Source: Nymphaea colorata
Lineage: Eukaryota
DNA length: 64,000 nt
Assembly: GCF_008831285.2 (NCBI RefSeq)
Contig: NC_045138.2
Coordinates: 6,386,001 to 6,450,000 of the forward strand
Direction: 5' to 3'
Shown: positions 1,901 to 62,541 of the stretch, in pieces
Layout: each line of letters opens with the position of its first letter
Numbering within the stretch: position 1 is the stretch's first letter
Notes under the pieces: model-generated
The model's input: only the letters and a program-made list of their open reading frames with translations
Told to the model about the DNA's origin: nothing
Databases searched by the model: none
Position numbers and translations under genes: made by a program

Positions 1901-2104
1901 TTTTTATTCTTTTACACCAACTCTCCACCGTATATTGTTTCCTCATGAGATCCCAAATGTCCCTACCGTGACCTATTGTACAAGTTTGCCATGATGACGT
2001 AGTTTGTTAGGAGTTCCCCTAATAGTAGGGATAGTTTTCCCTATCCCCTTCAAAAGACTCCAAACTGAGTTTTGGCATATACGGTCAAAATGCAGCATTT
2101 GATT

Positions 2105-22773: not shown

Positions 22774-23080
22774 TAGGGTTGTACATGAACTGAGTCAAGC
22801 TCGAGCTTGGTCAGCTCGACACTAGTCAGCACATACTTAATTTGCTTGCCTGGACCTTGAGCAGTGAGTCAAGTTGTATAAGGTCAGGTGGAGCTGGACT
22901 TGATAGAGTGGGTCCCAGCTAGAGCTGGGCTTGTTTAAGCTCGTTTACCAACTGACAACTGTCATTTGACTTGATCTGTTTCCTTTGTTTTACGAGTTTA
23001 TGTAGTTTGAATTTGACTCATTTAGAAGCTGAGTTTACTGAGTGAGTTCAAGTCAAGCTCGAGTTGGCTCGACTCATTAT
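22774..23080. mobile_element. Probable non-autonomous hAT-like element remnant
   Basis: Starts TAGGGTTGTAC and is rich in GCTCG/CGAGC-type subterminal motifs. Related starts at 37233 and ~55357. No second terminus or TSD found. Confidence 0.45.
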
Positions 23081-24633
23081 ATATCACGACTCAATGCCAA
23101 TGATACGTGTGGGAACATGGTGAAATCAACCGAATATCTGAATGATATTCAGCTCCTCGACAATGGAAACAGAGTTTCTCTGGTTGAGAATGTCTACTGG
23201 AGAATGTCACCCATCAATTCAGTTAGGAGATTTCTTTACAAGCTAGAAGGTAGTTCCTATTCCAATTCATTATAAAACATAGAGAAAAATACTCATTTTC
23301 CTTAATTTACATAACCTTACTTCCATTGAGTATTGTTTCAAGACATGGAACCAATGCCCTTTACAAAAACTATTTATCCTCGTTGGCACAAAGGCAGTAA
23401 CAAAAGAAAGCCTAAATTTTAGGGCGCTGATTATGTAACAAATTAATTTATGTGGGGGAACCACTATGCAAATAAAATAAATTGTGTGGTTCTAGATGGG
23501 CACACCACACCCAGCTCTACCATTAAGCTAACTGATAATAAGTTGGTGCACATCATAATATATTACACTTAACTTATGGATTTATAGAAGAACGTAAGAC
23601 TTAGTTGTTAAAGTATATATACTCAACAGGAAGGTTATTCGGATTATCTCACATTTTCTTCAGTAGCCAAATTAATTAAATATTGGGAAATATTTTCTCT
23701 CTATTGAAGGAACTAAGAGTTGGTGACTTCAAATGGATATTCACAATGTCTTTCTTCATAACGTATCTTCAGTGAGGTAGAGATTGATATGCAAATTGAA
23801 TATACTGTTGTACGGACTTAAATAATGTCCTTGGAATTGTTGGGTGAGCAACAAGAATATAATATCATACAGCGGCAAACAAGAGAAACGAAACCCCCAC
23901 CCTTCACCCATCCCCCAGGTACCAGGTCTGCTTGAGTGCTTTCGGTGGTGAATTAATACACAATTTAGTGATGCTTAGAAGGTAATATTAAGAACAGTAT
24001 GATTACCTAGTTAAGAAGTGTTCACCTCAAGTATTTATTCAACAACATAAGAGTGACCCTTATTAATATTTCCCTTCTTAAGTTATAAACAAAAAGTAAC
24101 CCCAGAAAAACAGAAAATTTGTTCTAATGATTTTCATATATAATTAAAGTAATAGCCATATTTATTCAAATATGTGTGGTATAGATTCTCTGTCACTAAA
24201 TAAGAAAGAGAGTTGATCATGATATAGATTCTCTTATCCAAATCCGATTCGATAGCATTTATGTTCTACAGCACCTCATGAATTTGAAAATCTCATATTC
24301 TCGAGTTGTTCCAGTCCAACTTGGTTATAAATATGTAATTCATATTGTTAATTCGATGAGAATCAATCTACAAATTCTGAAATATGAGATCTATATAAAG
24401 CTAAAAAATATTAAATAAGACGTTTTCTCAATGCAAAAAGGAAAATTAAGTATTTCAAGTGTAGATTTTAAATCGAATCTAAAATAGATTCTTTCAAGAA
24501 CTATGGATTTTACCGGGATCTTTTGCTATAGCCTATTGTTTACTTGGCGAGGCTAGTTTTATGCCTTGAACAACTTTTGTAGGGCAGTAGATCATACCAT
24601 AAAAAGCGGGCAGGTAAATAGGAAAATGAATAC

Positions 24634-25037
24634 CTGCTCTGCTGCCATGGTGTAAACCGGTGATGTTTTTCCCGCTGCATGATAGAATAACTGCTTTGCT
24701 GCCTCCTTTTCCAGCTTTGGCAATGGATAAATTTCATCCACTATATTCTTTTTCATCTTTTCTCTAGAGATGACGATGGTTTTTAGACGCTCTGTCCTAA
24801 ACAAGAGATTCTTCAGATCCTTCTCAGACCAAACATCATCTAAGACAATCAAACGATTCCCAGAGCACTTAATTTGCTGCTCACTCAGCCCATGCGCTAT
24901 CTGCCTCACAGCATCTTTTACGTCTTCAAACCTGGGCACCTCTCCACCAAGCAACTGAGACCATATTCTTTTGAGAATGTCCAGTGTATCTGGCGATCTC
25001 GAAACCGTGAAATAGAAGATATTCTTACCGAACGAGC
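24634..25037 (-). pseudogene. Isolated NB-ARC exon of an RPW8-type helper NLR (NRG1/ADR1-like)
   Basis: NIFYFTVSRSP (RNBS-A), VPRFED..DAVRQ, LIVLDDVW (kinase-2), KTIVISR (RNBS-B) and YPLPKL..EAAKQLFYHAA (RNBS-C). Stop-free and bounded by CAG| and |GTATTC. No P-loop, RPW8 or LRR exons nearby. Confidence 0.88.
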
Positions 25038-25051
25038 CTGACAACAGCCGA

Positions 25052-28927: not shown

Positions 28928-29279
28928 CTATTCAATATGGAGAGAATATCTCAACACCTTCCTTTTTCTGCTAATTCGATTTTTTAGATGAATGAGGATC
29001 AGCTAAAATTTGATGTGGTAGACAGTCATATATCGGTTGAAAGAGGTGGGCACGCCCTCTGCTTTCTGTTCTCTTTCTTCTGTTTCTTTTTTCACATATT
29101 TTTTCTGCTCTCTTTCCTTCGTATTTCTTCTCTAATTCCATTCTCACCCTCTTTCTCTTCTCTCTCCAGGTAAATCAAGTCGATCACTGTACATATCGGC
29201 CTTGAGTCATCGAAGCCCATTCTTGCGATCAGATCAAGAAACTTGAATCCGGTCGACGCAACACATGCACATGCACACA

Positions 29280-32200
29280 CATGCACATGCACAAAGAGGA
29301 TCAGGGCCACCACAACAAGGGAGAGAATAGTTCCAATGCTGAGGAGTCACCCTCTCTCCTTGCTGTGTCTATTGACGAGCTGGCGCCCCCCTTCTTTAGG
29401 TATCCACCTCCACCTTCTCCTTCTCTCACTTTTTGCCTTTTTCATCAAGGAAAAACTGGGGTTATTGGGTTGTTTCATTCAAAGAACACATATTGTTTTT
29501 CTTCAATGAAGTTGCAATAAGCCTTGTTTTGATCCGTTTTTGAGATGTTTGGTCCTCCATTCTCTTTGGAAATCTAGTATTAATTAGAACAAAGTGTTTT
29601 GAGTTTTATTTTATAGAAATTATTGTGATGTCATATGCCTGGCAGTGGGTCGCTAGTTTACATATGGAACTCATGAGACATCAACTTTCTTGTGCTGCAA
29701 AAAGAGACACTGATATATAAGTTGAAACATAGTGAGACAGTTTACTAGAATCAGGTCTGCTACCCTGGGAAGATGATGCCTTCAACTATCGTGTTTGGTG
29801 GCAGGATAAAATACTCCTCCTACTCACTGAACCTCCTACTCACTGAACGTATCACTGTGATGAGTTATTATGCCCAAGGCAGTTGCTCTCTTTCCATTGG
29901 TTGATTCCATATCATGTGCACCACATCATTTTCAGCTTCCTGAAACATAAACTTAATAAGTGATACAAACTCCTACGTTGACCATCCCCACCCCTTCTTA
30001 ATTAATAGGTTCACCACTCCATGTAACAAGCAAGACAAAAGGCCTTATGTACAAGACAAATGATGGAGCGAACATTATGAAAGAACGTGTCAGGACTGCA
30101 GAACATTCTAAATGGGATGCTGATGACCTTGTAGATTTCTTTTATAGTAAAGCATGGTGTAATATGCATGAATGTTATATTATTGGTTCCCTCCCCCCCA
30201 CCTCCCGAAAGTCAAAGAGGAAAAAGGTGAAGAGTGTGTTTAGAAGGAAACAGGTGAAGGGTCAACTACTTTGATAAAATTGGAGAAGTGTAAAGTGGGG
30301 TTTTTGGTTACGTAGGCATATCTGATTATATGATATTATATGTTCTGTTCCATAGCATAGTATATGTCATATAGTTGATTTATAGATAAATATATGTAAT
30401 GTGTCTTTTAAAGAAATTCATGTAAGTGATACATAAAAAACTCATGTTGTAAGCAGGATATATACTCATATCAAATAGCAAGAAAGTACATAGCCAAAAT
30501 CACAATATATATATATATGTATATATATAAAGCAAAAGGCATGAACCATATATCAAATAAAATAAAATTATTAAGAAAACAAGTGGAAAAGTAACTTCAT
30601 CATTTGGCACACATTTGCAAGCATGTGATTCGTCGAACTTGAGATCACCCTCAACAAGCTCAGTAGGATACTAGGATTTGTTCTCCAAGAATCGAACTTA
30701 AAGAAAAAAATATCTATATGCAGAAAAGGCACTAAAAATTAACGTTTTAGGCAATAATACATGTATAAGTAAAAAAGGTCAAGCCTCGACGTAGGGATTA
30801 ACAAAGATGACACTTTAGATTCTAACCTTATTATTGACATTGGATGTTTGCAAATATTTAGCACTACCAATTGTACATTCCAAATTTCGATTATTCATAT
30901 CTATATTCTCCAAACTTATGCTTTTGCTTCATTTGAGAGAATAGAGTTGGCGGGAAGACCTCATATCCGTCGTTGTTTGAAAACATGGATGTCACAATCT
31001 TATAAAAAGGAAAGTGTAGTGGCAGGACTAGAGTAGCAAACGGTTCAAGTTTGGAAGCTGTACATATAAAGAAAAAAATCCATGCATTTAAGTATTCAAT
31101 AATAAGGATGGAAATTTTAGGTTTCATTATTAATAATGGTCCCAAATACTGACATATAAAGTAGCAAACGGTTCAAGTTTGGAAGCTGTACATATAAAGA
31201 AAAAAATCCATGCATTTAAGTATTCAATAATAAGGATGGAAATTTTAGGTTTCATTATTAATAATGGTCCCAAATACTGATGGTCCAACCTTTTGTTTAG
31301 CAAAACTAGCTATACAACAGAAGCAGTTACTCATACTTTACATGAAGATGGTTAAACATAGCTACAATATCAAAAGAGGTGTCAATATGGAGCATAACAA
31401 ACATGTGACTGAACCTATTAAGCGAGAAATGAGAGTTGGAACACGAAATGCTATATCCTTCAATTAGAATACAATTGCTAAGGACACAAGTTAGCCATTT
31501 ATGATTCCAAAACTTTATCAAGCCTTCTTCAATCCTCCATTTAACGGTATTGGCAATTCCTTTCCAGCTATTGGAGAGGCCTTTAAAGAACCATAACCAA
31601 GAGGAGTTCTTGAATATCTCATGAGACCAGAAAGTGTCATTTCAGAGGTAATACCTGCAGAGCAAGAAGAGCAATTTGACTTTGACTAATTTCACAAACA
31701 TCATTAATGTCTACCTTACCTTCCTTAATCAAATGACTCATCACATTCCAAGAAATGAGATGTCTGAATCCAGTCTGAGAAGAGGAGTCCCAAAGGAAGG
31801 AAGATATGGGAGATTAGATTTCTTTAATGACCCTCACAAGAAGACGGAATACTACTGCCCAATATTGAATAATGTAAATTATTACATGATTTATAAGGCA
31901 CAACCTGCCAAAAAACAAGACGAGCCTTCACTTCCGACTGCCATGCTGCTTGTTAACTTTGAGAATTATGCACTCACACCATTCCTCTCTCAACCGGTCA
32001 TGGAACAGTGAGACTCGAAGTTAACGAATGGAAAAACTCCTGACCAACCAATCTTGCACAGAGCTAATCCAAAGGACCATCAAATCGTCCACATGAAATG
32101 GACATACTGACTGGAGTTAATCCTAAGCCCCACGCAATTGGACAACTTCTCCAACATAGATTCCACCATTTTCAAGGGATTGACCTTTGCCAAAAAAAAT

Positions 32201-32575
32201 AGCAGCACATCACACATGAAGAAGACTATCACTGAACACTTACCCTCACAGGGGAAGGATGTGCGAAGAAAACTCTTTATCTCTAGCATATTCATAGACA
32301 AAACTAAAGAAGGCCTCTATGACAATAATAAAAAGATAAGGGGAAAATGGTCACCCAGCCTCATACCTCGTTTTAGGTTAAAAAACCTACCTGGGCTACC
32401 ATTCGCCAAAACTGCTGCCAAAGCAATAGAGACATAGGTGAAAACTCTATTTCAACATTCTTAATTAAACTCTAGATGTAATTGGGTAGATATAAGGAAC
32501 AACCAATTCACCCTGTCATAAGACTGAGAGATCAAGTTTGAGATAAACCTTTTGAGAACATTCTTCATTTTGTTC
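29280..32575. repeat. Duplication block (core repeat plus LINE) homologous to ~41680-45460
   Basis: ORF pairs 29281/41651, 31264/43435, 31676/44507. A 128-bp local tandem duplication lies at ~31033-31280. Confidence 0.9.
31270..32575 (-). mobile_element. Degenerate L1-type LINE fragment, copy 2 (truncated within RT)
   Basis: Colinear with 2105-3400 and 44123-45460. Confidence 0.88.
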
Positions 32576-34277: not shown

Positions 34278-37200
34278 TGAGAGATAGAAATGTGAAAGGA
34301 ATAAGAAAAGAAATAGAGAAGGTGGCCAATAAAGAGAGAAAAGGCCTTAGGGTTGTCATTTGCACCATTCATAACATGTGTCCCTATGACACCATTGCTC
34401 ATTGTCTCCTTAAGCAAGGAGAGAGAAGAGGGAGAAGGTGAGAAAGGAATTAAAGAAGAAATATGAAGGAAAAAAGAACGAGAAAAATATATATAAAAAT
34501 GAAAAATAGAAGAAAGAGAACAGAAAGCATAAGACGTTCCCTTCTCTCTCAACTGTGGCCAGCAAAGGGTGCTCTTATCACACAAATGTACAAGCACACA
34601 AAGAGGAGGAGGGCCAAAGCACCAGGGGAGAGAATAGCAGAAATGCTGAGGAGTCATTCTCTCTCCTTGCTGTTGCAGTTGATGATCTGGTGCTACTTTT
34701 CTCCAGTTATCCACTCCACCTCCTCCTTCTCTCTCTCTCTCTCTCACTGTGTGCCTCTCTCATTAGTAAAAAACTGGAGTTATTGGGAAGTTCCATTCAG
34801 AGAACGTGTATTTTTTTCTTCGATGAAGTTGCAATAAGCCTTAATTTCGACATGTTTATTGAGATGGTTGGTCCTTCAAGAAAATCTACTGTTAATTAGA
34901 ACAAAGTGTTTTGAACTTGGTGTTGAGTTTTCTTTTATGGAAATTATTATGACGTCCTATCCCTGTGGATTGGGACAAGAAGGTAGCGAGTTTCCATTTA
35001 GAACTCATGGGGCTTCAGCTACTTTTGCTTTAAAAGGAGAGACACTAATGTACAAGTTGAAGCACAATAGGGCTTTGCAGTAAAATCAGGTCGGGTACCC
35101 TGGGAACATGATGCTTTCAGCTATCTTGTTGGGTGGCAGGATAAAAACCTCCTCCAACTCACCGTGCCTTCTTAATTAGTAGGTTCACCACTCTGTGTAA
35201 CATGCAAAACAGAAGGCCTTATGCATAACACAAATCATGGAGCAAAATTTATGAAAGAAGGTATCAGGATTGCAGAAAATTTTAAATGGGATGCTGATAA
35301 CCTTACAGGTTTCATTTCTAGTAGAGCATGGTGTAATGTGCATGGATGTTGTCTGATTGGCATACATTCACAAGCCTGTGATTCATAGAACTTGAGATCA
35401 TTCAGCAAGCTTAGTAGGATACTATGATTTGTCCTCCAACAATCAAATTTAAAGAAAAAAATATTTATAAGCAGGAAAGGCACTAAAAATTAACAAAGAT
35501 GTCACTTTTAGATTCTAATATTGTTATTCACATTGGATGTTGCCTAACATTTAACAATACCAACTGCACATTCCAAAGTTTGGTTATTTATATCTAAGTT
35601 TTACAAACTTATGCTTTTGCTCTATCTGAGAGAATAGGGTTGGTAGGAATACCTCATATCTACCGTCATTTTAGAACTTGGATGTCATAAACTTATGTAA
35701 TGGAAAATATAGTAATTGCCTTAGACATTGTAATTGTTTATGATGTCAAAGTAATTTCCATAAAAAAAACAAAACCAATTCGAAAACGCTCTGGTCTGGT
35801 TAGAAAGAGACATTTGAGGACAAAAACATCTGCGAAATAGTTACAATACAGTTGTGGCAGTTTTGTTTTTTTTGGATACGTAACATTTTGGAAAGAATAA
35901 TATTGGTTGCACGTCCAATCGTATCATAAAAACTATTTGGCTACATCTCAAAGTTTAGATCCGAAAGCAGTTAACAGAACGTTCGTTTTCCTCAATAAAT
36001 TCCTTGCTCGCTCAAGCCACAAATTCCTTTCGACAAATTCATTAGAAGGATTGTTGTGCCTAAAACTTGTATTCGTGGTCGACCCCCCTTTCTCCTTTTG
36101 CTTTCGTCACCATACAAGGTTCGCTGTATGATGAAAAGATGAACCTCTTAGGTTCAGTGCATTTTCTATCTTGTTCCGAGAAGAAAATTAACTGAGTCAT
36201 GTCAGTTTTGTCCAGCCTACCTAGCAGCCTCCTAAGCTAGGAGACTTTAATTTAAGTTATATATTTTGATTCATTGATGGTGAATATATACAAGCAGTTA
36301 CATATATATCGTACGACATTCTAGAGTATATCTCCAGACTTGGTAATAGATTAATAAAGAAGAGAATCAATTGGTTACAAGATAACTTACAAGAAAAGCG
36401 TTATTAACAGGCCCCTTCTTCACTCCTTGCCATATTGAATGATATATCTCAAAATATGGATCTGGCAGACATAAATGAAGAAGAGAATGATCCATTGGTT
36501 ATCAACAGGACTTAAAGATATAGAAATCAATTATGAGTATGAAGAACTTATTAAGAAAATTGATGAGCTAAAAGTTAAAACATCTTAACCAACCACGTCA
36601 AAATTAAGTAATAAATATTTGTTCATCAAAAGAAGATATGAAAATCTAAAAGATAAAAATAAAATTATTTGTCCAAAATAGTTAAGAATAAAACTCGACA
36701 AAACTATAGGAAATCACATGTATAAAGCAATAATCTGACTTTTACTGAAGTATTTATGAAGGAAAAAGATTATGGTTATCCTCCAGGACAACCATATTAT
36801 GAAATGAAAGATAGGTTTTAGATAAACATTTAAAAAAAAGAATTGATCAGAAAAAAGTAGGTGAAAATAATACAAAACTTCAGAATCAAGAATTAAACTC
36901 AAGTTTTATTCAATGAGTTTATTTATTTTATTGATTAATAAATCAATGCAACATTTTTTATAATTTCACAAAAAACAACTATTTAACAAGTAAATAAAAA
37001 TAAGTAAAAAATTAAAAAGTGGTCTATTATAACTATTTAATTAAAACTATCTTATGTAATCAATGTGTGCATTTTTATTAATTAACATTCAGTAAGTAAA
37101 TAAAACATAACACAATAAAGATTTTTAAGAGATGATGGGCTTAGATTAGGGTTGAGGACAACTAGATGGATGAAACAATTTAAAACATCAACTTATTTTC

Positions 37201-37359
37201 GTCCTTCAAGGCTGGAGATTTTGCCGTTTTTTTAGGGTTGCACAATGAGTCGAGCCAACTCGTACTCGATTCGAACTTCCTCGAAAAATCTCGGCTCGAA
37301 GCTCGAACTTACAAAGATACTCGAAACAATAAACAAGATGGTTAAGTCTATTTGAATAG

Positions 37360-38229
37360 CGGAGGATTCTCAACTCTCCATCCATTCACTACCCATGGAG
37401 CACTCCTGAGGCACATTCATAAAAAAATCTGGAAATGAGGAAAATGGGTTTCTTCTCAACCTGTTAGCTTTTTGGATATTCTGTTACTAAAGAAGGCGCT
37501 GATATAATAAAATTTGTTAGGGTTCATGTAGATGTGGCCTGATCTGATACAGAAAGCCAAGGAATGAGGCTTGGATGTTATCCAAACTTATGTTTCTGGA
37601 ACGGCCATGAGCCCTCTCCTGGGAAGGTAACATTTCGTTTCCTTCTACTTCCAGATTCTCTTTTAGTGGTACTTGTTCTTTTCTTTTCTTGTTTTTTGGT
37701 GGATAGGTTCATAATGTTGTCCTATATATTTCTGTCATTTGCAGTGTTATTTTGTGGGCAGATATTCGGTTCAAAGCTGGTTCATCAAGCCGGCCTCTAT
37801 GTTCACTTGTGGATTGGTCCTTATATTTGTGCTGAATGGAATTTTGGGTCAGTCTTGATTTTATCTGCAAATTAGAATGTTCACATTCCGTTGCTTGGAT
37901 TTGGATTTAATGATTTGTGCATTAACTTCGTTTTGATATTACAGAGGATTACCGGTTTGGTTGAGGTATGTACATGGTATCAGCTTTAGAACTGACAATG
38001 ATTCTTTTAAGGTATTTTTTTGCTTTGTTGCCTCTAGCTGTTTAAGAATTTTCTGCTGGCGACATGTTTAGATCTAGTGAAATGAAAAAGTGGGCCGTGA
38101 TGAGTTTCTGTTTCATTTTTTTTTTGAATTATGAAGGCTGCAAGGAAGGGATTCACTCAAAAGATTGTTGAGATGATGAAAGCTGAAGGGCTGTTCGAGA
38201 CTCAAGGAGGACCAATCATCTTTTCACAA
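37360..38229 (+). pseudogene. BGAL: Beta-galactosidase (glycoside hydrolase family 35) 5' fragment, exons 1-5 with introns
   Basis: Exons 37360-37410 RRILNSPSIHYPWSTPE; 37532-37626 [30 protein letters not shown] (stop and frameshift); 37745-37847 ..[25 protein letters not shown]; 37945-38011 GLPVWLRYVHGISFRTDNDSFK; 38137-38229 [31 protein letters not shown]. Borders are AG/GT except a GC at the first donor. Confidence 0.95.
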
Positions 38230-38534
38230 GTATGGAAGCATTTCGTTTTGAGGATGAACTGACTATTAGCTGGAAATCTTCTTTTCCATTTTGTAGATTG
38301 CTGGAAATCGCTTCATACTTTGTTTTTAGTAGCTGGGAGAGAATTTTCCTGGTGTGTGCTTGAGAGAGAGATAGTTTTTGAAGTGTTCCGGAGATCTGAT
38401 AATCATGATCGACCTAGTTCTGTTGTGGCATATATGATTTTGTTGGATGGGAGAGAAATTTCGTTACTGTTAATCAGCTGCTTGTATTTGTTTATGGAAT
38501 TTTCTCTTGCATGTTGGTTGCTAAAGCAGGTTAG

Positions 38535-39526
38535 ATTAAAAGAATAAAAAAAAAAGTGATGGGTGTTTTTGTCATCTAATATTAGCTCACACGTTTTCTC
38601 ATTGTTTTTTTTCAACAGTCTAAAAGTGAATGATGAATGGCCCTGAATAGCATTCATTCACTCACTATATATGTGTATATATTTCTGTATTTGATGTTGT
38701 GGCACATTGTGTGGCGGACAGAAGCTACAGTAAGTGAATTTTGTTTTATTTATGCACATGTAACATCTCTCTCTCTCCCTCCCTCTCTCACGTGTGTGGT
38801 TTTTCTTTTTGTTTCTTTTTTTTTCTCTTTTTGTTCTTGAGAGATAGCTAACTAACCAGATATTTTTTTTTCCATATATAACTTAATGTATAATTTCATT
38901 TAAAAATTTTAAAGCCATAATTTGAAGAGCGGTTTGAAACCGTCAGCCTTTATAGAAATTTCCTTTTTCCCCCTATAAACCAACAAACGTTGGTTAAGTG
39001 TAACGCTCAGTTGCCGTGTTGCATAACATTTCCAGGAGAAACCAGTAACCTCTTTAAAAGGTGTTTAAACACCCTTTTTATCTTTTTCATGCTATGGCCA
39101 GTTGCACCTTTTGATTTATTTGTTATCTTCAATTTCAAATACCTCGGCTATCGTCTTTTGCAAGTTCATATAAAAATTTCAATGAGCACTGTTACGAATT
39201 CAATAAGGGAAAAAGTAAGGGTCGTCTTGGGTATTCGATTAGTTTTAGGACCTAGTTTCCTTTTATGTCCATACCATCCTTTTTTCCACGAAAAGTGTTG
39301 GAAACTTTGATGGTGTTTCTCCCTCGAACATTTTCGAGGGAGAAACACCATCAAAGTTTCCAACACTTTTCGTGGAAAAAAAGATGGTTACACTTAACCA
39401 ACATTTGTTCGTTTATAGGGGCAAAAAGGAAATGAAATTATACATTAAGTTATATATGAAAAAAAAATATCTGGTTACTTTGCTATCTCTCAAGAACAAA
39501 AAAGAAACAAAAAGAAAAACCACACA

Positions 39527-39562
<36 letters not shown>

Positions 39563-39801
39563 CGAGAGAGAGGGATGTTACATGTGTATAAATAAAATTA
39601 AATTCACTTACTATAGCTTCTGTCCGCCACACAATGTGCCACAACATCAAATGCAGATATATATACACATATATAGTGAGTAACTATTCAGGGCCATTCA
39701 TCATTCACTTTTAGACTGTTGAAAATAAAAATAATGAGAAAAGATGTGGACTAATATTAGATGACAAAAACACCCATCACTTTTTTTTTTATTCTTTTAA
39801 T
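38535..39801. repeat. Large nested inverted repeat (outer arms ~370-420 bp; inner hairpin with 56-bp arms)
   Basis: 38535-38900 pairs with 39430-39801, 38958-39004 pairs with 39388-39434, and 39273-39328 pairs with 39333-39388. Confidence 0.95.
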
Positions 39802-39878: not shown

Positions 39879-41382
39879 GTACTATTTACAGTAATAGAGC
39901 CGACTCACGTCGACCGGATTCAAGTTTCTTGATCTGATAGCAAGAATGGGCTTTGATGACTCAAGGCCGATATGTACAGTGATCGTCCCGATTTACCTGG
40001 AGAGAGAAGAGAAAGAGGGTGAGAATGGAATTAGAGAAGAAATACTAAGGAAAGAGAGCAAAAAAAATATATGAAAAAAAAAAGATTGCCCTTATCACAC
40101 ACATGCACATGCCAGGAAAGGTTGCCCTTATCACACACATGCACATGCTGGTTGAGGATCAGGGCCACAACAACAAGGGAGAGAATAGTTCCAAAGCTGA
40201 GGAGTCACCCTCTCTCCTTGCTGTGGCTATTGACGAGCTGGTGCTCATCTTCTCTAGGCATCCACCTCCACCTCCTTCTTCCTCTCTCTCACTTTGTGCC
40301 TTTTTCATCAGGGAAAAACTAGGGTTATTGGGGAGTTTCATTCAAAGAACACGTATTGTTTTTCTACAATGAAGTTGCAATAAGCCTTGTTTGTGATCCA
40401 TTTTCTAGATGTTTGGTCCTTCAATCCCTTTGAAAATCTACTATTAATTAGAACAAAGTGTTTTGAATTTGGTTTTGAGTTTTATTTTATAGAAACATCT
40501 ATGTTCATCATCCCCACAACTTCATAATTAATAGATTCACCACTCTATGTAACAAGCAAGACAAATGGCCTTATGTACAAGACAAATCATGGAGCAAACT
40601 TTATTAAAGAACGTGTCTGGACTGCGGAACATTCTAAATGGGATGCTGCTGACCTTATGCTTCTTTTATAGTAAAGCATGGTGTAATGTGCATGGTGTAA
40701 TCACTTACATGTTCTGTTCCAATGTCATATAGTTGATTTATAGATAAATATATGTAATGTGTCTGTTAAATAAATTCATGTAAGTGATACAAAAAAAATC
40801 ATGTTGTAAGCAGGATATATACTCAGATCTATTAGCAAGAAAGTACATAGCCAAAATCTATATGTATATATATATATATAAAGCAAAAGGCATGAACCAT
40901 ATATAAATTATTTAACAAAACAAGTGAAATCCTGTGATTCATAGAACTTGAGATCACCTTCAACAAGCTCAGTAGGATACTGGGATTTGTCCTCCAAGAA
41001 TCGAATTTAAAGAAAAAAAATATCTATATCCAGGAAAGACATTGAAAATTAACGTTTCAGGCAACAAAACATGTATAAGTAAAAAAGCTCATGCCTCGAT
41101 GTAGGGATTACCAAAGATGGCACTTTTAGATTATAATCTTATTATTGACATTGGATTTTGCCTAATATTTAGCACTACCAACTGTACATTCCAAAGTTCG
41201 ATTATTCATATCTATATTTTCCAAACTTATGCTTTTGCTTCATTTGAGAGAATAGAGTTGGCGGTATTAAGCATGGTGCAAGGACCTCCTTCAATTTTTT
41301 TCTCTTTTTGAGCTTCCTTTTTTCTCTATTTCTTTTGTGCTATTTCATTATTCTCTTTCCTTCTCTGTTTCTCTCTCTTCCT

Positions 41383-41422: not shown

Positions 41423-43439
41423 AATGTGTGTGATAGAGAGAGGTTCAAGGAATAAGAAAAGATGGCTCAGAAAGAGAGGAAAGGTCTTGGGGCGATCACG
41501 CCACTGCTTATTATCACCTTAGACAAGAATAGAGAAGGGAAAGAGGGTAGAGAAGAAATACGAGGGAAAAAGAGCAGAAAAAATATATGAAAAAAGAGAA
41601 ACAGAAGAAAGAGAACAGAAAGCAGAGGGCGTGCCCTTCTCTTTCAACAGTTGCCAGCAAAGGTTGCCCTTATCACACACATGCACATGCACAAAGAGGA
41701 TCAGGGCCACAACAACAAGGGAGAGAATAGTTCCAATGCTGAGGAGTCACCCTCTCTCCTTGCTGTGGCTATTGACGAGCTGGTGCTCCTCTTCTTTAGG
41801 TATCCACCTCCACCTTCTCCTTCCTCTCTCTCACTTTTTGCCTTTTTCATCAAGGAAAAACTGGGGTTATTGTGGAGTTTCATTCAAAGAACACACATTG
41901 TTTTTCTTCAATGAAGTTGCAATAAGCCTTGTTTTGATCCGTTTTTGAGATGTTTGGTCCTTCAATCTCTTTGAAAATCAACTATTAATTAGAAAAAAGT
42001 TGGTTTACATTTGGAACTCATGCGGCATCAGCTTCTTGTGCTGCAAAAAGAGAGACACTGATATATAAGTTGAAACATAGTGAGACAGTTCACTAAAATC
42101 AGGTCTGGTATCCTGGGAAAATGATGCCTTCAACTATCTTGTTTGGTGGCAGGAGCAAATACTCCTCCTACTCACTTAGCATATCATTGTGATGATTTAT
42201 TATGCCCGAGGCAGCTGCTCTCTTTCCATTGGTTGATCCCATACCATGTGCACCACATCATTTTCAGCTTCCTGAAACATAAACTTAGTAAGTGATATAA
42301 ACTCCTATGTTGACCATCCCCACGCCTTCTTAATTAATAGGTTCACCAGTGCACGTAACAAGCAAGACAAAAGGCCTTATATACAAGACAAATCATGGAA
42401 CAAACTTTATGAAAGAACATGTCAGGACTGCAGAACATTCTAAATGGGATGCTGATGACCTTATAGATTTCTTTTATAGTAAAGCATAGTGTAATGTGCA
42501 TGAATGTTATTTTATTGGTTCCCTCCCCCCCACCCCCCAAAAGTCAAGCAGGAAAAAGGTGAGGAGTGTGGTTAGATGGAAACAGGTGATGGGTCAACTA
42601 CTTTGATAAAATTGGGGAAGTGTAAAGTGGGGTTTTAGGTTACGTAGGCATATCTGATTATATGATATTATATGTTCTGTTCCATAGCATAGTATATGTC
42701 ATATAGTTGATTTATAGATAAATATATGTAATTTGCCTTTTGAATAAATTCATGTAAGTGATACATAAAAAAATAATGTTGTAAGCAGGATATATACTCA
42801 GATCTAATATCACGAAAGTACATAGCCAAAATCAGAATATATATATATATATATAATAAAATAAAATTATAAAGAAAACAAGTGGAAAAGTAACGTCATC
42901 ATCTGGCACACATTCGCAAACATGTGATTCGTAGAACTTGAGATCACCCTCAACAAGCTCAGTAGGATACTAGGATTTGTCCTCCAAGAATCGAACTTAA
43001 AGAAAAAAATATCTATATGCAGGAAAGGCACTAAAAATTAACGTTTTAGGCAATAATACATGTATAAGTGAAAAAGCTCAAGCCTCGACGTAGGAATTAA
43101 CAAAGATGAAACTTTAGATTCTAATCTTATTATTGACATTGGATGTTGCCAAATATTTAGCACTACAAACTGTACATTCCAAATTTCGATTATTCATATC
43201 TATATTTTCCAAACTTATGCTTTTGCTTCATTTCAGAGAATAGAGTTGGCGGGAAGACCTCATAGCCGTCGTTGTTTGAAAAGTTGGATGTCACAATCAT
43301 ATAAAATGGAAACTATAGTGATAGGACTAGAGTAGCAAACGGTTCAAGTTTGGAAGCTGTACATATAAATAAAAAAATCCATGCATTTAAGTATTCAATA
43401 ATAAGGATGGAAATTTTAGGTTTCATTATTAATAATGGT

Positions 43440-46300
43440 CCCAAATACTGATGGCCCCACCTTTTGTTTTGCAAAACTAGCTATACAGCAGACGCAGTCA
43501 CTCATACTTTACATGAAGATGGTTAAACATAGCTACAATATCAAAAGAGGTGTCACTCTCTATGCCATGTGGAGGTTCCAAAGCCTCCAGCAAACCCCTC
43601 TCTTCAGAAGCGCTATCCACTTTGTCATCCCCTTGCTCCTCGAAAATAAATCTCACCCCAATTAGCTCATGCTTCAAATTAAGCTCCACTTTCTTTGGAT
43701 CGATCACTTTCACCATTCCCCCACGCAGACCTTCAATTGATAATTCTCCCTTTAGTTTCTTCAAGTCTTTTAGTTCATTAATATTGCAACCTCTTGTCTT
43801 CCCTTTGTCATCGCATACCATAAACCTATGCAAGGTCCGTAAATTAGTAAGCTTCCCCAGACCTTCAGCTACGAATTTCAATTCCTTTGTATCTTTCAGC
43901 CCAAGATACCTCAAGTTGCACAGTTCGCCCATTTCCTTGGGCAACTCTTGAATGGCACCATGACTTAAATCCAATGTTTGCAAGTTACAGAGTCTGCCGA
44001 TTGAACTGGGCAACCGTCTCACTTTAGACTTGCTTAGATCAAGATATTTTACAAGTGCAAGGCATTGAATGCAATTTGGCAACTCATCCATTTCACATCC
44101 CCTCAATAACATAGTGCAAGGCATGGAGCATAACAAACATGTGACTCAACCTATTAAGCGAGAAATGAGAGTTGGAACACGAAATGCTATATCCTTCAAT
44201 TAGAATACAATTGCTAAGGACACAAGTTAGCCATTTATGATTCCAAAACTTTATCAAGCCTTCTTTAATCCTCCATTTAATGCTATTGGCAATTCCTTTC
44301 CAGCTATTGGAGAGGCCTTTAAAGAACCATAACCAAGAGGAGTTCTTGAATATCTCATGAGACCAGAAAGTGTCATTTCAGAGGTAATTCTTACGAACAA
44401 ATTTGGCCTGGGCTTAACTTGAAGCAAACCTGCAGAGCAAGAAGAGCAATTTGACTTTGACTAATTTCACAAACATCATTAATGTCTACCTACCTTCCTT
44501 AATCAAATGACTGATCACATTCCAAGAAATGAGATGTCTGAATCCAGTCTGAGAAGAGGAGTCCCAAAGGAAGGAAGATATGGGAGATTAGATTTCTTTA
44601 ATGACCCTCACAAGAAGATGGAATACTACTGGCCAATATTGAATAATGTAAATTATTACATGATTTATAAGGCACAACCTGCCAAAAAACAAGATGAGCC
44701 TTCACTTCCAACTGGCATGCTGCTTGTTAACTTTGAGAATTATGCACTCACACCATTTCTCTCTCAACCGGTCATGGAACAGTGAGACTCGAAGGTAACA
44801 AATGGAAAAACTCCTGACCAACCAATCTTGCACAGAGCTAATCCAAAGGACCATCAAATCCTCTACATGAAATGGACATACTGATTGGAGTTAATCCTAA
44901 GCCCCACGCAATTGGACAACTTCTCCAACATAGATTCCACCATTTTCAAGGGATTGACCTTTCCCCAAAAAAGTAGCAGCACATCACACATGAAAGAGAC
45001 TATCACTGAACACTTACCCTCACGGGCGAAGGATGGTGTGAAGAAAACTCTTATCTCTAGCATATTTATAGACAACCCTAAAGAAGGGCCTCTATGACAA
45101 TAATAAAAAGATAAGGGGAAAACGGTCACCCAGCCTCATACCTCGTTTAAGGTTAAAAAACTTACCTGGGATACCATTCACCAAAACTGCTGCCAAAGCA
45201 ATAGAGATATAGGTGAAAACTCTATTTCAACATTCTTAATTAAACTCTACATGTAATAGGGTAGATATAAGGAACAACCAATTCACCCTGTCATAAGACT
45301 TTGAGAGATCAAATTTGAGATAAACCATTGGTTTCTTATCCTTCTTCATGCTATGAATGATCTCATGTGCAAGGAAGATGTCGTCATGTATGACTTTATT
45401 GGTGGAAAAAACTGCTTGGTCATCTAATACAATCCTTTTGAGAACATTCTTCATTTTGTTGACCATAATTTTTATGATCAATTTATACATACTGTTAAAT
45501 AAAGGAATGGGTTGGAACTTTTGAAGAGTTGTTACACCTTCCGTCTTAGGAATAAGGGTGATTTGTGTGCGATTGACCTTTTGAACAAGCCTTCTTATTA
45601 AAAGAACAACTGTACCATTTTACTCCCATCTGCACCTACAATATGCCATTTGGCCTACAGTATCCCAAAAGGATCGAAAGACTATACACTTGTGCTCCTC
45701 CAATGTGATGAGCTGGTTCCGCTCCTCACTTTCACTGCAAGAGACACATGGACATCCACTGAGCATGTTCCCTTCACCTTTTTCGATTCCAAGGAGCTGT
45801 TGGAAGCAACCATAGTAAGCTGCTAGGATGGCATGTGGATCCCTAATCATGGAGCCTTCCACCTCCAGCTCAGTGATGGAACTTATTCTTCTCCTACTTC
45901 TGGTAATAGTCTGGAAATAAGTGGAATTACGATCACCTTCCAACATCCATCTCACCCTAGCCGGTGTCTCCAACTGCTCTGTTCCTCATCAAGGCACTTC
46001 CTTATTGATCCCTCAGAATCCTCTCTTCATCTGCATCCACCTACCCTCTAGATCATGGATCATTTGACATATTTAATTAGAACTTTATGGCTTTGATCAT
46101 AAGTTCAACTGGTTCAAGCTGACCCTTCCTTCAACGAGCTAGAGGCATGTGGGTTGCTTTAAGCTTTCCCAAAAACTTGAGCATGGGGTATCCAAAAATG
46201 TTCACCCCCATTCCTGAGCGATCACAAGCTGGCATTCCTTCCTCCGCTGCAAACATCTAAAGTAATGAAATATTTGAGGCCTAAGAATGTCGCTTTTGTT
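43440..46300 (-). mobile_element. Degenerate L1-type LINE, copy 3, interrupted by an NLR fragment
   Basis: ORF 45620..45973 ARVRWMLEGDRNSTYFQ and ORF 45236..45490 KFDLSKSYDRVNW. Colinear with copy 1. Confidence 0.92.
43556..44122 (-). pseudogene. LRR-region fragment of an RGA2/RGA3-like CC-NLR disease-resistance gene
   Basis: ELPNCIQCLALVKYLDLS, LPSSIGRLCNLQTLDLS, ELPKEMGELCNLRYL, GLGKLTNLRTL, INELKDLKKLKGELSIEGL and LLEALEPPHGIE. Stop-free over 567 bp. Confidence 0.93.
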
Positions 46301-46304
46301 GAAG

Positions 46305-49084: not shown

Positions 49085-50047
49085 AGAGAGAGAGACAGAG
49101 AAATGAGGTGGAGGTGGCCACCGCGAGAGAACGAGCATCAGATCATCAATGGCCATGGTGGGGAGACAGATTGACTTCTTGTCATTTTCAGTGTTATCTC
49201 CTTCGTTATTCAAACTCTCCTCCTCTTTTTGTGTGCATGTGATTGTCTATTTGATAAGAGCGGCCCCTGCCAACAACATTTGGGAGAGAAAAGGACATGT
49301 CTTCTGCTTTCTGTTTTCATTCTTATTTCTTCATATATATATTTTTCCATTCTGTTTCCTTCGTACTTTTTCTCTTATTCCTTTCTCCCTCCCTCTCTCT
49401 TGCTTCTTGTTGTTCAAGGGGATAATAAGCAATGGCATCATAGGAAACACCTTATATTAAACATGGTGTTGAGCCCCTCCTAAAATCTTTTTTTTTCCCT
49501 TTTTCAGCTCCCCTTTTTCTCTAATTCTTTTTTGCTATTTCATTATTCCTTCTCTCTCTAACGCACATGATATATATACATAGTGAGAGAGAAATAGGTA
49601 TAAGGAATACAAAAAGAAATAGAAAAGGTGGCTCAAAAAGATAGAAAAGTTCATAAGGTGGTCACCGCAGCATGCATAACATGAGGTCCCTATGAGACCA
49701 TTGCTCATTATCTCCTTAAGCAAAGAGAGAGAAGAGAGAGAGGGTGAGAAAGGAATTAGAGAAAAAATACGAAGGAAAGAGAACACAAAAAAATATGAAG
49801 ACAGAAAAGCAGAAGAATGAGAACAAAAAGAAGAGGTCGTGACCTTCTCTCTCAACTGCTTTCAACAAGTGGCACTCTTCTCACACAAACGCACATAAAC
49901 AGAAACAGGAGGAGGGCCAAAGTAATGGGGGAGAGAATAGTGCAAATGCTGAGGAATCATCCTCTTTCCCTGTTGTGGCTGTTGATGATCTGGCAATCCT
50001 TCTCTCTAGGTACCCACTTCCACCTCCTCATGTCTTTCTCTCACTCT
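49085..50047. mobile_element. Microsatellite-centred foldback element (imperfect palindrome, ~480-bp arms); most complete copy
   Basis: The CT-rich left half is the degenerate reverse complement of the GA-rich right half about a centre near 49570. Partial copies at ~10742-11200, 26757-27600, 33890-34750, 41270-41835 and 59290-59970. Confidence 0.75.
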
Positions 50048-50753
50048 ATGTCACTATCATTAAGGAAAAAATGGGGTTATTTGGGAGTTTTATTCAAAGA
50101 ACTCCTATTGTTTTCCTTCGACAAAGTTGCAATAAGCCTTGTTTTCGACCCATTTTCGAGTTGTTTGATCCTTCAATGTTTTTTAAAATCTGTTAGTAAT
50201 TAGAGTAGAGTATTTTTAATTTGGTTTTGAGTTTTCCTCTACAGAAATTGTTGTGACATTGTATCCCTAAGGGAGTTGGCACAATAGAAGGGGTAGATGT
50301 TGGTAGATTACTCCATTGGTTATTCATGGGGCATCAACTTTTTGTGTTGCAAAAAGTGGATACTGATATCCAAGTTGAAGCATAACATACGTGTATGTGC
50401 ATCAAAAGTAGGTCTGGTACCTGGGGAAGATGGTGGCTTGTCTCTCTTGTTAAGCGGCATGATAAACTACTCCTCCTACTACTCAACAAATTACTGTGAA
50501 GTTTTACTCTGCCCAAGGCAGTTGCTCTCTTTCCATTCATTGAACCCATACCACGTGCACCACATCATTTTCAGCTCATTTGAACATAACCTTAATAAGT
50601 GATGCAAACTCCTATGTTGACCATCTCCGTGCCTTCTTAATTAAAATGTTCACCACTACATTCTATCATGCAAGACTGAAGGCCTTATGCATATGACAAA
50701 TCATGGAGCAAGCTTTATGAAAGAAGGTGCCAGGATTGCAGAAAATTTTAAAT

Positions 50754-52897: not shown

Positions 52898-55593
52898 GTT
52901 TGTAAAAAGATTGTGTTAACTCGAAGGAATGGAGAGAGAGATTCTAGAGTGAGAAAGTGGGATACACATATATATTTGTTTATATGTACATATATATATG
53001 AGAATCTACAAAAGAATATGTCAAATCAAAGAGAGAGAAGGATAAACATAGATATTCAATTTTCATGTATACGTTTATAACATGTATATACGCAAATACA
53101 TATCTGAAAACAAAATTCAAGAGATAACTTAGAGCATTTATGAGTTCGATTTTTCTATATAGGCGGAGAGGAACTTGGGCTCATGCAAAAGCTTAGGCTA
53201 AGTCTCTAAGGCCTCATTGAAGGGGGTTCTTATTTTTCAAATTCTTTTGAAAACACGATTCCAAATATTTTCATACAAGTATAAAACAGTAGTCATTTCA
53301 TAAACTACAAGGAAATTTATTTCTTCCACCATTAGATAGGTAAGAAAATCAAGCACACAAGAAATAAAAAGTTAATAACCTATGATTTCTAATCGGGTGA
53401 TTAAAAGAAATGCTAAACGTAAGAATGTCATGTAGATGCACTTTAACATGTGTGCATTTGTAAGGGGTTTTCCTGGGTTAGACAAATCCTAATCTCAAAA
53501 ATCAACATAATAACAAAAAAATCTCAATCCAAGCACTCATGCTTTTTATTCATTCGCATAATAATTGAAAAATCAATAAACTATGCATGAACCTCTTAGC
53601 ACAACACATATCCAAGAGAAGAGAAAAACATATTTCGATCCTAGAATGAAATTTTATTTCACCTTACTCATGCTCTCTGTGTATTCAAGAATAGTTCTTG
53701 ACTCCGGAGAGGAGATTTGAGAGTCATCTAATATGACCATGGGGAGAAAGATGGGGGAAAGAAAGATAAAGAAAAGGATTGGGATATTAAATACTTATTT
53801 CTAATGAGAATGATTTTAGAAAATGAGTCTCCTTCTTTGGACTTTGGCTTTGTATTTTGGATCAAGGTATGTTATTTAAATCTAGGACTTGGATTTGGAT
53901 CCTAATCTTGATCTAAAGTTGAATTTTGGATTTAAATCATACATTTGGATTCAGATATGGGTCTAGAGGTCCATTTTGGATCAAATCGTCGAGAATTGGA
54001 CTTGGATATGGCTATAGAAGTCTGTCTTGGATCTAGGATCAAAATTTGAATTTGGATACAAATTTAGAAGTCTGTTTTGGGTTGAGCTTGGACTCGGCGT
54101 CCAAAATTAGATCCAAATCATTGTAAAGATGGTTACCAAGAATCTTGTTTGAATGAAACAAAGTCTTTTTTTGGGTTGAGCTTGGACTCGGCATCCAAAA
54201 TTAAACACAAATCATTGTAAAGATGGTTGAAATAACCAAGAATCTTGTTTGAATGAAATAAAGTCTTTTGAAAAAAAATGGGGTGATAATAGATGCAGTA
54301 CTAAAGCAACTGTAATTAAATCAACTTTGGGATCTCTAGGTATAGATAAAAAAAAACATATCTTGACGTATTCTGGAACGTGGATGTCAATTTTTTGTGT
54401 TATTATTGACATTGTATGTTGCTTAACATTTAGTACTACCAATTGCACATTCAAGAGTTCAGAGTGTTTGAATCTAAGTTTCATACCTATTCTTGGACTT
54501 TATTTGAGACAGTAGACTAGGAAAAAGACCTCTCATATACATCATTGTTCCAAACCTTTCATGCCATAGATGTATATATAAAATGGGAGATATAGTGCTA
54601 ACACTAGGGCAAAAAATGATTTAGAGTTAAGAGTTATAGGTGAAAAAGCTCATGAGTTAATGTATTCAATAACAAGGATGAGAATTTTATGTTTTAACAT
54701 TAATGCAATCGTTGAATCCCACCTACATGTAGCATTAACAATTGTATGTTCCAAAGTCATGAAAGACCTTACGTCAAGTTTTTTCCTAATTTAAACTTGT
54801 GATTTACTTGAGAGAGTATAGTTGGTGGAAAGACCCCTTATACCCAAAATTGTCTAAAACTTACATATAAAGTAGGAGATATAGCGAGAAAGATACTCAC
54901 AATTGTTCAAATTTAGGAGTCATATGTACAAGTAAAAATTCTCGTCTCCTAATGTATCCAATAACAAGGATAGGAATTCTAGATTTAATATTAATGTTGT
55001 CACTGGATGCTGCCTAAATTTAATGCTAGCAGTGATACTTTTCAAAGTGTGTCTTAGTATTTAAATTTCTAATTTAAGCTTATGTTTTACTTGGGAGAGT
55101 ATAGTTGATGGAAATAAAGACCCCTCATGGCTTCATGGAGTCATCCACATTGCCTTGCATGCCTTCATGGCTTCAAAACATGGTCAGGTCTTTCTATTTC
55201 ATAACAAGGCAGAATTGAAATCTAGGCGGATCATAAGAAATCTTGGTTTACCTTGCTTATGTCTATGCTTGTTTCCCTTTCTAGTTCATCAATCTCCCTG
55301 ACACACTTGCATGAACTTCACTTCCTGCTTGTACCAATAGAACTCTTCTTTACTATTAGGGTTGCACATGAGCCAAGTCAAGGTTGATCTCGGTCAGCTC
55401 GACACTACTCAACACATACTTAATTTGCTTGGCTTCACCTTGAGCAGTGAGTCAAGTTGTATAAGGTCAGGTAGAGCTGGACTTGATAGACTGGGTCCCA
55501 GCTAAAGCTCGGCTTGTTTAAGCTCGTTTACCAACTCGACAACTGTCATTTGACTTGATCTCTTTCCTTTGTTTTAAGTTTAGAGACTGTAGA

Positions 55594-55629: not shown

Positions 55630-58550
55630 GTATGTATATGTATCTATATATATATATGTATGTATATGTATCTATATATATATATGTATGTATGTATGTA
55701 CTCAAGTTCATGTAGTTTGAGTTTGACTCATTTAGAAGTTCAAGTTGGCTCGATTCATTATATATCAGGACTCAATGCCAATGATACGTGTGGGAACATG
55801 GTGAAATCAACCAAATATCTGAATGACATTCAGCTCCTCAACAAGGGAAAGAGAGTTACTCTGGTTGAGAATGTCTACTGGTGAATGTCACCCATCAATT
55901 CAATTAAGAGATTTCTTTACATGCTAGATCCTTTCCCAATTCATTACCCAAGATAAAGAAAAATACTCATTTTCCCTTATTTACATAACCTTACTTCTAT
56001 TGAGTATTGTTTTGCATCTCATAAATCCTTTCTTAAAACATGGAACCGATGCCCTTTCCAAAAACTATTTATCCTCCTTGGCACAAAGGCAGTAACTAAA
56101 GAAATCCTAGATTTTAGGGCACCGATTATGTAACAAATCAATTTATGTGGAGGAACCATTATGCACATAAAATAAATTGTGTGGTTTCTACACGGGCAAG
56201 CCACACCAAGCTCTGCCATTAAGCTAATTGATAATAAGTTGGTGCACAGCATAATATATGACACTTAAATTATGGATTTATAGAAGAACGTAAAATTTAG
56301 TTGTTAAAGCATATATACTCAACAGGAAGGTTATTCGGATTATCTCACATTCGCTTCAGCAGCCAAATTCATTAAATATTGGGAAATATTTTTTCTCTAT
56401 TGAAGGAAGGAACTAAGAGTGGTGACTTCAAATGGATAGTCGCAATGTCTTTCTTCATAGGGCATCTTCAATGGGGTAGAGATTGATATGCAAATTGAAT
56501 AAGCTGTTGCACGGACTTAAATAAGGTCCTCGGAATTGTTGGGTGAGCAAGAAGAATATTATATCATACCGCACCAAACAAGAGAAACGATACCCCCACC
56601 CTTCCCCCCAGAGTACCAAGTCTGCTTTCGGTGGTGAATTAATATACAATTTAGTGATACATAAAGGGTAATATTAAGAACAGTATAATTACCTAGTTAA
56701 AAAGTGTTCAAGTATTTATTCAACCATTTTCATGAAAGGAGTGACCCTTATTAATATTTCCATTCTTAAGTTATAATAAAAAAGTAATCCAACAAAAACA
56801 GAAATTTTCTTGTAACGAATTTATATCTGATTAAAGTAATAACCACATTTATTCAAGTGTATGTGGTATAGATTATCTGTCACTAAATAAGAAAGACAGT
56901 TGATCATGATATTCTAGTATATGCGGTATAGATTCTCTGACCCAAATCCGATTCGTTAGCATTCTGGTACTACAGCACCTCATGAATTTTAAAATCACAT
57001 ATTCTTGAGTTGTTCTAGTCCAACTTGGTTATAAACATGTAATCCATATTCTTAATTCGATCAGAATCAACATACAAATTCTGAAATATATCTATATAAG
57101 GCTAAACAATATTAAATAACACATTTTCTCAATGCAAAAAGGATATTAAGTATTTCAAATGTAGATTTTAAATCGAATCTACAATAGATTCTTTCATGAA
57201 GTATGGATTTTACCGGGATCTTTTGTCATATCAGCAAAAATATGTCAGATTAAATCAAGGGCAGATCGATATATGTTAAATTTGAAGTAATCAAACTCCT
57301 CTTAGCCTAGTGTTTACTTCTCGAGGCATGTTTTATGCCTTGAACAACTTTTTGTAGGGATGACTTTCACCCTAGGTAACTTTTGCACAGATTTTCAGGT
57401 AGACATCTAAACGTGTGACTAAAATCCATAAAAATTGTTCACTTCCATTTTAAAAAGAGGAGTGACCACGTAGGAAAAGAATAACCTTCATAGAATCAAA
57501 CAACAAGAAAATAAATGTCATTTTTTTGTGAGAAATTAGGAAAACTTATTTTACATCAAAAAATACAAATAAAAATGTTCTATGTTTTATCAAACGAAGC
57601 TTATAGTTAATCATATTTAAATTTGATAAAAACAACTTAAAGTTCAAAGATCAAAAAGTAGTTGCACTTTAGATTTAGTTATCTAATTTATCTCCTACAT
57701 ATGGCATTAGCAAGGACACAATTCCAAGTATTGCAAATGCGCCAAATCTGGGTCACGAGCTATTTGGGACCGCAATACTTATACCATCATAATCAGATCT
57801 AGATCTGCTATGGAAACTATGTGAGGATTCAGATCTAATACCCCTTTAGCACAAACCGGACACCCATTTGGCTGGTCAATGGTCACCTTCATAAAATCTC
57901 AAAAGTAAGGGATTTAAACGGGCCAGACATATCACAGATTAACAAACAAATACCGAATCGATTTAACTGGATGTGGTAAAAAAATTTTAGGTTCATTCAA
58001 ATTTAAATTGACATACGGTATGCAGCTTCACCACTAAACATAAATTCGAATAAAGTACCCACCAGTATCTGATAAAGATCCTATCTACATAATGAAGCTG
58101 GATCTTACATTAGTCGGATCCGAATTCAGTTTTCCAGAAAATCAGCTCCAGATTCAAATTGAAATTATTCAAATATGATTAGTTAAATTTGTTAAAAATT
58201 AAACCCAACCTGAAACCAAAACTATATTCCAACCTAAAATGTCAAGACACAAGACAACTGGTGTATAATTTTTCTGTTTTAAATTATTTCTCTTTGTTTA
58301 ATTAAAAGTATCATAGTTCTTTTAAGTATGTCTTGACATTTTTTATTCACAATTTTTTTGTAAAATTATGTGCAAATTTTCAAATATTAGTCAGTCTTTT
58401 GTGACAGATCAAAGTTGAGCAGTTAGCTGCAAAGGTCTCACACATAAATGAATGAACTAGATCAATAATAAACAAATAAATGGATCACTTGATTTACTAG
58501 GCAAAGGTCTAAGCATAATGTTCTTGGACTTCTGAGCAAATAGTGCATGA

Positions 58551-62148: not shown

Positions 62149-62541
62149 GTTCCACCCTGCCGATTGTATAATTCTTTATGTTTTGATTCTTCAACTTTCA
62201 TAGAACTGTGATCAAGCTCAGGACTCTTTTCTCAAAGGTAAATTATTCAAGTTGGTCACGCTTTCATCTAGATCTCCAGTAGGAAACTGTCGCACTTGAG
62301 GAGATGTGTCGATTTTGTTATTGCCAAATCTTGCAGTCTCCGTTTCCTCATTTAGTGGCAGTAAGAAAATCGACACATCTCCTCAAGTGCAACGCTTTTC
62401 TACTGGAGATCTAGATGAAAGCGTGACCAACTTGAATAATTTACCTTTGAGAAAGAGTTCTGAGCTTGATCACAGTTCTATGAAAGTTGAAGAATCAAAA
62501 CATAAAGAATCACCTTTCCAGATACAATTGGCAGGGTGGAA
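62149..62541. repeat. Second copy of the ~180-bp-arm hairpin
   Basis: Homologous to 13397-13789 at offset 48752. Confidence 0.97.

Follow-up and report, generated by a model that had tools for sequence, protein, structure and literature searches.

The window analysed here, i.e., the whole stretch of 64,000 nucleotides of Nymphaea colorata DNA, is an array whose units arose by segmental duplication, and it contains remnants of LINE, Ty3 and Ty1 elements. Four copies of one LINE remnant (designated A, A', B and C) are found in it, and in copy C 567 bp lie between GAGGTGTCA, ending at 43555, and ATGGAGCAT, starting at 44123. An earlier note on this DNA had reported these 567 bp as opposed to AT alone in the sister copy, and this was confirmed, the sister AT being located at 31385-31386. 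The features of the locus and of its counterparts are the following:

42003..43452, array repeat unit, present in all LINE-bearing copies and in LINE-free ones; aligned to 21660-22021 and 54400-54712
43453..43551, approximately 100 bp found in copies B and C alone (alignment); possibly distal LINE after an older deletion
43552..43555, minus strand, last LINE bases common to copy A beyond the site (A/B alignment, 13/15)
43556..44111, minus strand, piece of the LRR region of a CNL, RGA/RPP13-like (Pfam, relatives, tree, RNA reads)
44051..44068, likely filler template within the insert (sequence, 12-mer match)
44112..44122, junction filler of 11 bp, one unmatched base plus 10 bases equal to 44054-44063
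43498..44145, minus strand, open frame of 215 aa from stop to stop, covering the insert and running into both flanks
44123..46301, minus strand, LINE remnant copy C, plant L1-type, reverse transcriptase (RT) and downstream region (RVT_1, E=4.3e-11)
A 2102-4304, A' 17165-17403, B 31387-32552 and C 44123-46301, LINE copies sharing the host flank (self-BLAST)
31376..31395, empty site in sister copy B (alignment; the same AT joint in runs X3 and X10)
2083..2098 and 17146-17161, empty sites in the outgroup copies A and A' (alignment)
24585..25051, minus strand, whole NB-ARC exon of an RNL, with acceptor and donor splice sites and short stretches of intron at its ends; it takes the place of 26 bp present in the sister site (57360-57385)
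approximately 37540-38240, plus strand, four pieces of beta-galactosidase (GH35) exons, introns included, broken (Pfam, E=3.2e-9)

The segment 43556-44111 is a copied piece of a Nymphaea coiled-coil NLR (CNL). It comprises 556 bp, or approximately 185 codons, with neither intron nor stop, and its frame matches the Pfam families LRR_14 (E=4.9e-19) and LRR_R13L1-DRL21 (E=6.7e-12). Among the best 120 of 700 matches, the top relatives are NLRs of Nymphaea thermarum and N. colorata, the closest Nymphaea CNLs having 77-80% amino acid identity to the insert, and the best annotated N. colorata protein among the matches listed reaches 77%. Rx_N (PF18052), NB-ARC and LRR are all present in the domain lists of the closest CNLs. 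The tree, which drew on 38 of the 120 best matches (700 in total), nests the insert in the Nymphaea clade as sister to P0004 (support 97/85). The collinearity with NLRs is confined to 43556-44111, because the reads and contigs of the relatives leave the window sequence at these two positions. Thus, the earlier description of an NLR LRR segment at 43556..44122 is correct in that the LRR of a CNL occupies 43556-44111, but the last 11 bp are filler. When 34 Nymphaeaceae CNLs were compared to the window with tblastn, the LRR piece and, at a distance of 19 kb, weak matches to the RNL exon were obtained and nothing else; the N-terminal signalling and NB-ARC domains of a functional NLR gene were not found by this search. 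None of the three versions of the frame that start at an ATG was present in the protein collection searched.

The LINE copies A, A' and B are without the LRR segment and keep the two bases that are missing from C, and across the site 13/15 bases agree between 2084-2098 of copy A and 31381-31395 of copy B. Two DNA runs with two other organism labels (X3 and X10) contain the empty joint 43555-44123 with AT. In addition, a 134-bp contig of X3 reaches across the right junction in its filled state, extending 79 bp to one side and 55 bp to the other, and has 2 differences; the left filled junction is spanned by no contig among those listed. As the site is empty in three sisters and in X3 and X10, and the filled right junction is found in X3, the segment is an insertion, not the product of a deletion in the sister or of an assembly error. 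The target lost 2 bp, and the absence of a target site duplication (TSD), already noted earlier, was confirmed at both ends of the insert. All four LINE copies share the host flank and therefore descend from one old insertion spread by segmental duplication. Copy C has many stops and frameshifts, is 88% identical to copy A and is collinear in tblastx with L001-L004; the RT search for LINE relatives gave one match among 278 candidates, and the metagenome scan four distant loci. Transduction by the LINE would have left the cargo in sister elements, a poly(A) tract or a TSD, and neither of the latter was seen, while 0/3 sister LINE copies in the window have the cargo. The scenario in which other members of the LINE family also carry the LRR thus failed on the three sister copies in the window. 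The LINE is thus passive and served as the landing site of the NLR piece.

Rightward of the insert the flank is LINE (RVT_1 match, tblastx), and leftward of the site there are 4-5 bp of LINE matching copy A, then approximately 100 bp shared by B and C only, then the array unit. The continuation of copy A and the left flank of copy B, when compared to L001 and L002, did not score above shuffles (best 63/1000; 12 tests and two whole-region tests). As a lead to the identity of the flank, the nearest named cluster in the Atlas is zf-RVT, in 25% of members, with a score of 0.90. The flanks had previously been read as the zinc-finger region of the LINE, based on the motifs CLLCS and NHLH. This reading is not supported: the two motifs lie in different frames of the empty copy, the second C and the H are 41 nt apart as compared to 24 nt in real CCHC zinc knuckles, and the knuckle is found 153-156 codons past FW..W in L001 and L002 but the site only 35-41 codons past it. 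Here we take the knuckle to be C-x2-C-x8-H-x4-C, and FW..W to be a LINE motif. Flanks derived from an NLR, the other refuting scenario, are contradicted by profiles of the CNL sequence beyond the insert, on which the flanks score no more than 3.6 bits and the members have medians of 100-117. The insertion point 43556 lies 4-5 bp from the older junction at which A differs from B and C (43551); a random break would rarely be expected so near to it.

At the left junction no base is common to the reads of the relatives and the target. The right junction reads in the order NLR ending in ACA, one unmatched base, 10 repeated bases, LINE. The 12-mer 44113-44124 has two occurrences in the window, the second at 44054, and 44113-44127 is identical to the template at 14/15 positions, running into the first LINE bases. 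The site matching the filler is thus 59 bp inside the insert. The template is preceded by ACA, as is the filler by the NLR end 44109-44111, and is followed by ATTGA, which agrees at 4/5 bases with the LINE end ATGGA. In 200,000 random trials over the insert and 300 bp on each side, random fillers gave 10 matches in 0.8% and 12 matches in 0.06% of the trials (P 0.0006-0.008). Neither terminal inverted repeats nor a TSD, as expected of a Pack-type DNA transposon, were detected next to the cargo when 43300-44400 was scanned.

The frame over the insert had been reported as staying open into both flanks. It is indeed open, with 215 aa from stop to stop; the 212 aa given previously is the length from a TTG, and the first ATG, at 44124, was created by the junction and gives 208 aa. 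The openness is, however, unremarkable, as the run-on into the flanks is at chance level (P 0.28 for 18 codons on the left, 0.61 for 7 codons on the right), and the frame is not the one of the LINE ORF2. The latter stops 9 codons into the insert, and no in-frame fusion with ORF2 was found, given this stop.

RNA signal was confined to the bins of the insert, where 255 reads of X21 (sampled at approximately 6% of the run) and 19 contigs of X1 were placed, with none on the flanks; runs X22 and X24 contributed 0 reads, a count that has no weight as a test. At an identity of at least 96%, a level at which paralogues may be mixed, 65 X21 reads tile the insert, and 21 and 10 of them continue as NLR past the two ends. 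The closest transcripts have 10 listed differences from the insert in 556 bp (1.8%, i.e., approximately 98% alike), five of which (43845-43879) rest on 5-7 reads each. Four of the differences are synonymous and six nonsynonymous, one of the latter being a nonsense codon of the X21 transcript at 43980 (8/8 reads) that the insert does not have; no protein relative retrieved ends at this codon. According to the alignment of the 34-protein family, 5/6 of the amino-acid-changing differences are derived on the transcript side. The closest transcribed NLR also has four other changes at conserved residues besides the nonsense codon, and the insert therefore keeps an older state than its transcribed relative.

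At 43652, 43741 and 43873 the insert has bases seen in none of the X1 and X21 sequences aligned at 85%, and the changes on the insert side number 3-5 (0.5-0.9%), two of them unpolarised. Just one of these 3-5 changes alters an amino acid, which may reflect constraint or, equally, changes that took place before the copying. The proportion of synonymous differences (4/10) is not above neutral (P 0.17-0.41). Copies B and C are 3.1-6.2% diverged, and A and C approximately 9%. The probability of no stop arising is 0.77-0.89 for 5 substitutions and 0.59-0.79 for 10. The stop-free state of the insert, which had been regarded as needing an explanation, is probably due merely to youth, being the expected outcome at 3-10 substitutions (P 0.6-0.9). 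The proposal of a recent capture from a CNL gene, on the other hand, stands, supported by the CNL relatives, the tree, the approximately 98% similar transcript and the few changes on the insert side.

The second immune-receptor fragment within 20 kb was also verified; it is a separate insert at 24585-25051, holding an RNL exon with 134/134 amino acids identical to N. colorata P0123. None of the other exons of P0123 was found in the window. The RNL insert has the same delins form as the CNL insert and lies in the same array. As it holds intron ends, the template for the RNL event was DNA or unspliced. The exon could be spliced into any minus-strand transcript crossing the locus. P0123 and a paralogue reside on the 27.7-Mb contig of N. 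colorata, whereas 15/17 of the N. colorata CNL relatives among the best 120 of 700 are on the 44.6-Mb contig and 0 on the 27.7-Mb one. The suggestion that both pieces came from a single NLR cluster nearby is thus not supported, the RNL match and most CNL relatives being on different chromosomes. As the exact CNL donor is absent among the listed relatives, these positions merely lower the probability of a local donor.

A third host-gene piece in the window is not immune-related, namely the beta-galactosidase one, so that 2/3 of the host-gene pieces found are NLRs. It was detected in a Pfam scan of 149 of the 232 frames of at least 60 aa, plus 12 more frames, and its exon structure beyond the Pfam match is presumed by us. 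The GH35 pieces have one frameshift and one stop and lie within a stretch that is unique in the window (36503-38534). Together with the differing contigs, this piece weakens the idea of a nearby cluster. By our own estimate, two NLR pieces in 20 kb exceed what gene counts suggest. NLRs have expanded in N. colorata (PMC7015852), and a single CNL lineage has 102 genes (PMC9140740). Owing to this expansion, NLRs make up a larger share of the possible templates.

The marks of break repair found at the locus are an empty ancestral site, a small target deletion, a templated filler and a near-identical NLR transcript continuing past both ends. We are fairly confident that the 556-bp CNL piece, which sits in one of the duplicated copies of a dead LINE, was copied in during double-strand-break repair and is probably neutral debris. 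A broken end would have been primed on an NLR via a short imperfect match (4/5 bases), 10 bases would have been synthesised and the end released, and re-priming would have followed on the same template, 59 bp away. Approximately 556 bases would then have been added, either by synthesis at the break or by capture of a fragment that was already free, and the other (left) side would have been closed by a blunt join. By analogy, the pattern fits the use of an ectopic template, either in end joining by polymerase theta or in SDSA-like repair. The event would have occurred after the B/C duplication, and too few changes would therefore have accumulated for a stop to be likely.

The absence of introns in the insert, its sense, which is the same as that of the LINE, and the transcription of the donor family might also be accounted for by an NLR mRNA that was reverse-transcribed in trans at the break by a LINE or LTR RT, or by capture of a cDNA, the product still being neutral debris. 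LTR-driven retroduplication of NLRs is indeed described as common in plants (PMC5664825). Nevertheless, the piece is internal to the coding region and has neither poly(A) nor TSD, the neighbouring RNL insert keeps its intron ends, and the LINE copy had inserted before the event, as seen from the shared flanks, which excludes template switching during the LINE's own insertion. We therefore consider an mRNA or cDNA origin unlikely. The possibility that the NLR piece filled the older deletion behind the left junction of B and C, and was later lost from B, is raised by the site being 4-5 bp from where A stops matching B and C. It is largely refuted already and very improbable, as B keeps two bases that C does not have and is collinear with A (13/15), and the insert differs from its relatives by 1.8%, less than B from C. 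An assembly chimera of the array with an NLR cluster is hardly credible: the region is repeat-rich and the left junction occurs in no listed contig, but the X3 contig runs across the right junction with only its 2 differences, and the filler is structured.

Of a different kind are the readings in which the inserts have a function, either because the array keeps NLR pieces for trans-acting small RNAs or because the 208-aa frame, which contains LRRs only, is expressed and under selection. NLRs being two of the three host-gene pieces, the open frames of both and the broken state of the closest donor-type transcript speak for this, and in Brassica siren loci with gene fragments are reported to act in trans (10.1101/2021.06.10.447945). 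The CNL piece and the RNL exon are both under approximately 1% diverged on their own side. They are, however, young enough for their openness to be due to chance, no RNA read falls on the flanks in either X21 (at approximately 6% of the run, and from a plant that may lack the filled allele) or X1, the ATG arose by chance where insert and LINE were joined, the frame of the LINE ends after 9 codons of the insert, and Rfam gave 0 matches in the window. Such a function is accordingly quite improbable. The same doubt attaches to its boldest form, in which the array would trap immune-receptor pieces from other chromosomes and make from them small RNAs by which the expanded NLR families are tuned or silenced in trans, the nonsense-bearing donor-type transcript being a casualty. 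A narrow open-access search found no literature on captured NLR fragments making trans-acting siRNA.

Repair of double-strand breaks with ectopic filler, our preferred reading, has several described counterparts. Fillers are marks of polymerase theta, and T-DNA capture with one filled and one blunt junction is known from Arabidopsis (PMC10923293). Filler accompanies 13% of barley indels (PMC3706897), and gene pieces from another chromosome fill breaks in tandem repeats (PMC3503983), while SDSA-like movement of gene fragments is a model that PMC3503983 credits to Wicker et al. 2010. The fillers at the maize p locus are 1-131 bp in length (PMC2686159). The water-lily insert resembles ectopic-filler repair in that a foreign gene piece entered tandemly duplicated DNA with a small deletion of the target and without a TSD, its donor possibly being on another chromosome; it differs in being longer than the maize fillers, NLR-derived and base-resolved at both junctions. 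With the Arabidopsis T-DNA capture it shares a filler templated from the captured DNA, a microhomology of a few bases and a blunt join at the other junction. The water-lily event, however, is natural and inherited, has host-gene cargo and is known from sequence alone, and continuous copying of 556 bp is not demonstrated for polymerase theta itself.

Intron-free NLR sequence inside a retroelement is also a feature of LTR-retroduplicated NLRs (PMC5664825). Here, in contrast, the host is a LINE, the sequence is a fragment rather than a gene, and it entered after the insertion and duplication of the element, without being mobilised by the LINE. Similarly, in Pack-MULE, CACTA and Helitron capture and in siren loci (10.1101/2021.06.10.447945), several gene pieces lie inside the repeats of one region, but the water-lily insert is without terminal inverted repeats or TSD. 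No matching paper on NLR fragments in LINEs was found in a narrow open-access search.

The insert is a tidy instance of an already described process, and not an unusual one. It provides a natural, base-resolved case, from an early-diverging lineage of flowering plants, in which a break was most likely patched with part of a gene and the filler records the template switch, and it illustrates the scattering of NLR parts. It also calls for caution, as such open frames should not be annotated as genes or as LINE capture. The case would gain greater weight if, across the genome, NLRs served as repair templates more often than expected, or if trans-acting small RNAs were produced from the array.

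Several other features of the array deserve mention. An exon-like frame (GENSSNAEESP-type) occurs in at least six diverged array copies, at 27400-27700, 29206-29520, 34510-34899, 40049-40372, 41591-41914 and 49843-50196, and another one is found at approximately 23118-23250 and 55790-55880. Neither gave a Pfam or Atlas identity, the frame 23042-23272 being without a usable Atlas match. The segmental duplications 1-2345/15084-17408 and 10770-15246/59566-64000 are very recent (95-99% alike), and recent duplications have doubled Ty3 fragments (5781-7122/17423-18756). Inverted repeats of approximately 370 bp, 85% alike, flank a 530-bp core at 38535-39801; the structure is MULE-like, with no TSD of 8-11 bp found. 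In copy B there is a 124-bp tandem duplication (31029-31152 and 31157-31280) with a few unmatched bases in between, possibly a repair scar. Finally, approximately 390 bp at 13398-13789 and 62149-62541, in two duplicated units, are self-complementary and may represent a fold-back element or a hairpin RNA.
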